Shown here piece after piece: positions 7,701-7,880 of a stretch of DNA of 10,895 nucleotides. The stretch is from assembly GCF_003334315.1 (NCBI RefSeq), contig NZ_QOWR01000087.1; one strand, written 5' to 3'. Numbering within the stretch: position 1 is the first letter of the stretch; every line of letters starts with the position of its first letter. The notes under the pieces were generated by a model. It saw only the letters and a list, made by a program, of their open reading frames with translations, made no database searches and was not told the DNA's origin. Made by a program: the position numbers and the translations under genes. The DNA comes from Escherichia coli (lineage in GTDB: Bacteria; Pseudomonadota; Gammaproteobacteria; Enterobacterales; Enterobacteriaceae).

Positions 7701-7880
7701 AATACCGTGTCGGATGCGGCGTGAACGCCTTATCCGACCTACAAAACCTGCACGTTAGCCCTTCGTAGGCCAGATAAGACGCGCCCGCGTCGCATCTGGC
7801 ATCTGCACCCAAATACCGTGTCGGATGCGGCGTGAACGCCTTATCCGACCTACAAAACTACCAAACCTGCACGTTAGTTT
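7701..7880. repeat. BIME / REP cluster (three REP units, two direct and one inverted)
   Basis: The REP-like unit cggatgcggcgtgaacgccttatccgacctac occurs at 7711-7742 and again at 7821-7852, inside a near-perfect ~47-bp direct repeat beginning aataccgtgtcggatgcggcg. An inverted REP (cttcgtaggccagataagacgcgcccgcgtcgcatctggcatc) lies between them at 7761-7803. Confidence 0.7.

Follow-up and report, generated by a model that had tools for sequence, protein, structure and literature searches.

Descriptions of REP and BIME elements go back decades and cover their Y and Z2 composition, the variation of their copy number between strains and their candidate roles, which are protection of mRNA 3' ends, partial Rho-dependent termination and gyrase binding; the elements are annotated in Escherichia coli K-12. 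By definition a REP includes a GTAG tetranucleotide at the foot of its palindrome, and in the Gilson/Bachellier classification a BIME-2 consists of y and z2 units in tandem copies of variable number (Ton-Hoang et al. 2012, PMC3333891). In vitro, the REP-associated transposase, TnpA-REP, cleaves iREPs and the DNA next to them at C^T and stimulates the recombination of BIMEs (PMC3333891). Closest to the element described here is REP325, from one Y+Z2 repeat of which the naRNA4 model was built (RF02564; Qian et al. 2015, PMC4550694). REP325 has been shown to be both a partially Rho-dependent terminator and a stabiliser of the upstream mRNA; tandem gene pairs with a REP show upstream-biased expression with a large context dependence, and terminal REPs do not generally lengthen mRNA half-lives, their effects depending on context (Harris et al. 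2026 preprint, bioRxiv 10.64898/2026.03.23.713779).

We analysed a stretch of 10,895 nucleotides of the E. coli chromosome (assembly GCF_003334315.1, contig NZ_QOWR01000087.1; henceforth the window), in which a cluster of REP units lies between rsmC and a gene for tRNA-Leu(CAG). The cluster is a BIME of an already known kind and behaves as its family does.

Locus and composition of the element

The upstream gene, rsmC, is a + strand ORF at 6658–7689 (stop codon 7687–7689), and all matching genomes annotate it under that name. A gap of 308 bp separates it from a single tRNA-Leu(CAG) gene at 7998–8084, beyond which come yjjZ on the minus strand and then fhuF. The BIME is extragenic, lying between the rsmC stop and the tRNA gene without overlap with any ORF of at least 50 aa, and about 85 bases separate its end from the start of the leuQPV (leuV) promoter further downstream. 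A promoter-like TTGACG-16-TAGAAT is present at 7929–7956, 5' of the tRNA gene. The region from about 7881 to the tRNA is near-invariant in all alleles compared (see below), so that the variable BIME stops directly upstream of a conserved promoter region. The features discussed in the text are the following (window coordinates):

7698–7758, + strand: copy 1 of the direct repeat, 61 nt, with Y1 between the last part of the head-side linker and the first part of the tail-side linker; 60/61 matches against 7809–7877.
7708–7742, + strand: Y1, a Y-type unit in iREP orientation (TGTCGGATGCGGCGTGAACGCCTTATCCGACCTAC; CTAC at 7739–7742); palindrome, core match, hairpin of -19.3 kcal/mol, z -4.7.
7743–7764, no strand: tail-to-tail linker between Y1 and Z2, 22 nt (AAAACCTGCACGTTAGCCCTTC), whose first 16 nt recur after Y2.
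7765–7801, + strand: Z2, in REP orientation (GTAGGCCAGATAAGACGCGCCCGCGTCGCATCTGGCA; GTAG at 7765–7768); palindrome, core match, hairpin of -21.1 kcal/mol, z -4.9.
7802–7818, no strand: head-to-head linker between Z2 and Y2, 17 nt (TCTGCACCCAAATACCG), with inserted residues in the naRNA4 alignment.
7809–7877, + strand: copy 2 of the direct repeat, 69 nt, longer than copy 1 by an 8-nt insertion; repeat finder and gapped alignment.
7819–7853, + strand: Y2, identical in sequence to Y1 (CTAC at 7850–7853); palindrome, core match, naRNA4 alignment, hairpin of -19.3 kcal/mol.
7850–7865, + strand: tandem octamer, CTACAAAA followed by CTACCAAA, one copy of which is the 8-nt insertion; alignment of alleles.
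7881–7997, + strand: promoter region of the tRNA gene (context); near-invariant alignment columns among alleles, from CTGATGG on.

The three units measure 35, 37 and 35 nt, within the 30–40 nt of the imperfect palindromes of E. coli REPs, alternate in orientation, have stems broken by a conserved internal mismatch and carry the GTAG/CTAC tetranucleotide in 3/3 cases. The REP core pattern GATGCGRCG-N2-8-CGYCTTATC matches at 7713–7734 (+), 7773–7796 (-) and 7824–7845 (+), with 0.00 matches expected from 200 shuffles; a fixed loop (GATGCGRCG-N6-CGYCTTATC, up to 3 mismatches) recovers the Z2 unit alone, and the variable gap is needed to find all the units. As RNA, the three separate hairpins have z values of about -4.7 to -4.9 and the whole region folds with a z of -5.1. 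The predicted whole-region fold includes long-range pairing between Y1 and Y2, likely an alternative made possible by the palindromes and not a likely co-transcriptional structure.

The Rfam model naRNA4 (RF02564) matches 7768–7850 on the minus strand with 70.3 bits against a gathering score of 59.5. In this alignment Y2 falls on the Y hairpin and the middle unit on the Z2 hairpin, nearly base for base and with compensatory changes, including the stem foot (a single U:A to A:U change in Z2), which confirms the unit types as Y and Z2. Y1 gives a partial match to the Y hairpin at 7700–7739. The element in the rsmC 3' region is thus a BIME-2-type Y-Z2(inverted)-Y cluster of three REP palindromic units. 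A first, sequence-only reading of the window had described two REPs within a direct repeat of 47 bp flanking an inverted REP; its coordinates, length and arrangement were correct by repeat finder, alignment and core pattern, and the alignment to REP/BIME families that it proposed as a check gave this naRNA4 match. The subtype is probably BIME-2, a class with a short S head-to-head linker and s, l or r motifs on the tail side; formally the element could also be an 'atypical BIME'.

Like other BIME-2, the element alternates Y and Z2 with GTAG/CTAC in each unit, is extragenic, lacks an IHF-type L linker, and is built on a tandem unit whose number varies between strains at one locus; it differs in having only one and a half unit repeats (3 palindromes). 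It resembles REP325/naRNA4 in the Y+Z2 pair that scores above the threshold of the covariance model and in its position, in the 3' region of one gene with a second transcription unit on the same strand after it. However, REP325 has 12 units instead of 3, the strand that matches the model is at rsmC-leuQ antisense to the upstream gene, and leuQPV downstream is no operon partner of the upstream gene but is served by a strong promoter of its own. The head-to-head linker is also 6–7 nt longer than its REP325/naRNA4 counterpart (17 nt versus about 11 in the REP325 model).

The core pattern has one more match in the window, at 26–50, within a second REP cluster at the window start (18–83), downstream of the minus-strand ORF 95–877; it consists of a Z2-type unit in REP orientation (GTAGGCATGATAAGACGCGACAAGCGTCGCATCAGGCA) followed by a short degenerate Y-like remnant (TGCCGGATGCTGCCTAC). 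Around the main cluster, a perfect 10-nt inverted repeat (GTTAATTATC at 7685–7694 and GATAATTAAC at 7917–7926) brackets the whole BIME, its left arm overlapping the rsmC stop codon and its right arm lying just upstream of the -35 of the tRNA promoter. This bracketing is probably due to chance, since a stretch of 600 nt is expected to contain about 0.2 such pairs and the JCH767-type allele does not conserve the left arm.

The units belong to a dispersed family. Queries containing REP units hit a median of 9–13 places per genome in 5,426/5,426 complete E. coli genomes by megablast, a lower bound because the program needs 28-nt exact words. As an example of the family, strain SMN197SH3 has between the convergent genes yacG (gyrase inhibitor) and mutT a Y-type REP that shares about 95% identity with the BIME's Y units (L013, 501–542). 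An apparent second K-12 locus for the 47-mer, near 423 kb, was rejected: it is the same rsmC-leuQ locus in a genome numbered from a different origin. In the K-12 RefSeq feature table no REP feature is listed for the rsmC-leuQ region. Our literature search returned only one paper naming both rsmC and leuQ, an unrelated one on Salmonella, and nothing usable on FIS sites at the leuV promoter.

The direct repeat and the variation in unit number

The repeat finder reported a 50-nt direct repeat (7698–7747 and 7809–7858) with 49/50 identical positions at a spacing of 111 nt, each copy containing one imperfect 14+14-nt palindrome and a third palindrome of opposite orientation lying between them at 7769–7800. 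Gapped local alignment extends the repeat to 7698–7758 versus 7809–7877, with 60/61 matches and one 8-nt insertion in copy 2. The exact 47-mer within it (7701–7747 and 7812–7858) is the longest exact repeat of the whole window, compared with at most 15 in 50 shuffled windows. The repeat is near-perfect because the element consists of one complete and one incomplete copy of a basic 111-bp unit (Y, tail linker, Z2, head linker); it arose when a BIME unit was amplified locally in tandem and does not stem from two independent insertions.

The rsmC-leuQ locus was found in all 5,426 complete E. coli genomes of the collection. At least 25 independent complete genomes, of isolates from humans, wastewater, rivers and food, match the window with 100% identity over the whole interval that runs from the BIME past the one tRNA gene to yjjZ. 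We aligned and parsed 12 alleles (the window and 11 reference loci, two of these K-12 derivatives), which form a series of 1, 2, 3 and 4 or more units:

EH08-18-36 and JCH767: one Y unit.
K-12: Y-Z2.
Window, 510016, M6, AR216.2b and 32-4: Y-Z2-Y.
WP7-S17: a truncated Y, then Z2-Y-Z2-Y.

To obtain frequencies, 60 rows were taken at even steps down the match ranking, yielding 59 chromosomes; the identity bands of the database search are unusable for exact allele counts, as short perfect matches and joined pieces share the same bands. One unit was found in about 29% of the 59 sampled chromosomes, two in about 36%, three in about 34% and four or more in about 2%. The exact 441-type allele of the window accounts for about 8% and the three-unit form without the 8-nt insertion for about 25%. 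Copy number of the unit therefore does vary across E. coli genomes, which is what the earlier reading had proposed to check. Compared with the window, the K-12 allele shares Y1, Z2 and the promoter region but has no Y2 and so no direct repeat, with an intergenic distance of 267 bp instead of 308 bp and three tRNA-Leu genes instead of one.

The most informative pair is the window and strain 2018-11-1BCC, which carries the window haplotype minus exactly one 111-bp unit, keeping the left variant of copy 1 (CCGAAT) together with the right end of copy 2 and its 8-nt insertion. This allele is what recombination or slippage between the two 47-bp repeats is expected to leave behind; read the other way, it would be the parental form in which a unit was then duplicated. 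The direct repeat is the substrate on which units are gained and lost, through unequal recombination or slippage during replication; cutting of C^T sites by the REP-associated transposase may be a further route. The earlier reading, which had linked such elements to recombination, is borne out in this respect by the range of unit numbers and by this exact deletion derivative. The nearly equal frequencies of one, two and three units argue that selection on unit number, and with it on the direct repeat, is weak or absent; the repeat in itself is probably neutral.

The 8-nt insertion sets the window allele apart from the commoner three-unit allele. In other alleles the end of Y2 reads either CTACAAAAC or CTACCAAAC but never both, and in the window the two stand in tandem. 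The insertion is bounded by CTAC motifs, with C^T dinucleotides of the kind cut in vitro by the REP-associated transposase. It could have arisen by simple slippage on the CTAC microhomology; an origin through TnpA-REP could also be imagined, by analogy with the in vitro cleavage and not as something for which the motifs are evidence.

The window also differs from K-12 and most strains in having one tRNA-Leu(CAG) gene where these have three (leuQ-leuP-leuV). On its upstream side the single gene is flanked like the first copy and on its downstream side like the third (a flank region that includes 8085–8122), and the first and third copies are identical in sequence. One gene between the flanks of copies 1 and 3 indicates a clean deletion by recombination between identical tRNA genes. 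The single-copy configuration occurs in at least 38 of the 40 best-matching genomes, and among all 5,426 genomes the number with less than three copies is up to about 509. The sequence-only reading had connected the BIME with a possible change in tRNA copy number next door, but the two are uncoupled: strain 510016 has a BIME identical to that of the window and three tRNAs, and AR216.2b has one tRNA with a different BIME allele. The loss from three tRNA genes to one is thus a separate event of tRNA-tRNA recombination, independent of the BIME allele. In strain 510016 the middle tRNA-Leu (leuP position; L001, 1254–1340) is one base off the outer two, a C to T change in the variable-arm region.

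Possible roles and rival explanations

Transcription of rsmC reads into the BIME, and a scan of both strands from 7500 to 8200 gave no intrinsic terminator-like site; the three hairpins, which lack a U-tract, are therefore the only obvious 3' structures of the rsmC transcript. In the + strand transcript the three units are predicted to fold into these stable hairpins. We infer that they most likely act as a barrier to 3'-to-5' exonucleases, which would define and protect the 3' end of the rsmC mRNA. They would probably also form a partial, probably Rho-assisted attenuator, so that less transcription runs on into the strong tRNA promoter. At the DNA level, gyrase may in addition bind the Y units and cleave them. 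The sequence-only reading had likewise listed gyrase binding, stabilisation of upstream mRNA and partial termination, which are roles known for the class from the literature. Unit numbers of one to four at comparable frequencies imply that any such function is modulatory. Taking the evidence together, a BIME-2-type cluster that gains and loses units through its repeats, with a modulatory function at the 3' end of rsmC, is very probably the right description. Stop-codon-proximal REPs reportedly have an effect of their own when they lie within about 15 nt of the stop codon. The Y1 stem begins 17–19 nt past the rsmC stop, and this effect probably does not apply here.

A serious rival, to which we would give a real but minority chance, holds that the BIME has no selected function and is a selfish or neutral insertion, spread by RAYT/TnpA-REP and recombination and tolerated because it lies outside gene and promoter. 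In its favour are unit numbers from 1 to 4 and above at similar frequencies, flanks and unit sequences that differ between alleles, the CTAC motifs bounding the 8-nt insertion, and the presence in both Y units of GACC^TACA, a TnpA-REP cleavage site (PMC3333891). It fits less well with the retention of at least one Y unit in 12/12 parsed alleles, always at the same place after the rsmC stop, with an rsmC that has no other terminator-like structure, and with the strong genome-wide bias of REPs to 3' UTR positions.

Another possibility, which we consider unlikely, is that the BIME acts mainly as DNA, a gyrase site that would manage supercoiling in the interval from rsmC, as it is transcribed, to the very strong leuQPV promoter, which lies 85 bp from the element. 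The Y+Z2 composition and the abutment of the element on a conserved promoter region would suit such a site, and gyrase cleavage sites are over-represented in BIME-2, being enriched in a subset of them with a preference for y units (PMC6379681). However, only that subset of BIME-2 is cleaved, mostly longer arrays, and one-unit alleles are common at this locus; the names rsmC, leuQ and leuV do not occur in the supplements of the gyrase Topo-seq mapping paper (PMC6379681).

The match to RF02564 raises the question of whether the BIME could be the gene for a naRNA4-like, HU-binding nucleoid-associated small RNA, a reading that we disfavour and think very unlikely to be right. The strand that scores above threshold is the minus strand; it is antisense to rsmC, and no other gene reads into the BIME at close range. 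The + strand reaches only 44.7 bits, below the threshold, and no promoter-like site on the minus strand faces the BIME. Moreover, any Y+Z2 pair matches, the model itself being one BIME unit (PMC4550694), and the role of naRNA4 in chromosome compaction is contested by its own laboratory. The minus-strand gene yjjZ (8123–8359) is transcribed toward the tRNA gene and the BIME, with terminator-like sites absent on both strands between 7500 and 8200; from the sequence, antisense read-through from yjjZ could reach the BIME in the orientation that matches naRNA4.

The sequence-only reading had also named IHF among the proteins that such elements bind. Some BIMEs do in general bind IHF, and a BIME-1 of that kind (RIP/RIB element) would likewise contain an inverted REP pair with a Y unit, but BIME-1 are single Y-L-Z1 pairs (PMC3333891) in which the IHF site belongs to the conserved long L linker. 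At rsmC-leuQ there is neither Z1 nor that linker: the inverted unit is Z2, and 7690–7900 contains no match to the IHF consensus WATCAANNNNTTR even with one mismatch allowed. IHF binding of this type is highly improbable at this element, and the proposal does not hold. The sole exact match to the consensus in the window, TATCAATAAGTTG at 10454–10466 on the minus strand, sits in the gap between the minus-strand ORFs 9961–10425 and 10458–10835, and the number of such matches is no higher than expected by chance.

Finally, a sequencing or assembly duplication, for which the near-perfection of the repeat is the only point, is refuted by the identical configuration in the 25 or more independent complete genomes and by the frequencies of the exact allele and of its three-unit relatives given above.

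What the allelic series means for the locus and the family

Beyond its correct annotation, the rsmC-leuQ BIME matters little. One further idea, a long shot based on sequence comparison, is that the series of unit numbers, which stops about 85 bp short of the start of one of the strongest stable-RNA promoters, could tune rsmC read-through or, by way of gyrase at the Y units, local supercoiling, and hence the expression of the major tRNA-Leu(CAG) genes. If that were true, selection could use the copy number of the BIME as a 'dial' for translation capacity, one that would perhaps interact with the 3-to-1 polymorphism in tRNA gene number at the same locus. What the locus does offer is a clean natural series of 1, 2, 3 and 4 or more units and a textbook before-and-after pair for recombination between 47-bp repeats, which is mildly useful, and both are material with which the recent 'dual terminator-stabiliser' model of REP action may be tested in a second genomic context.
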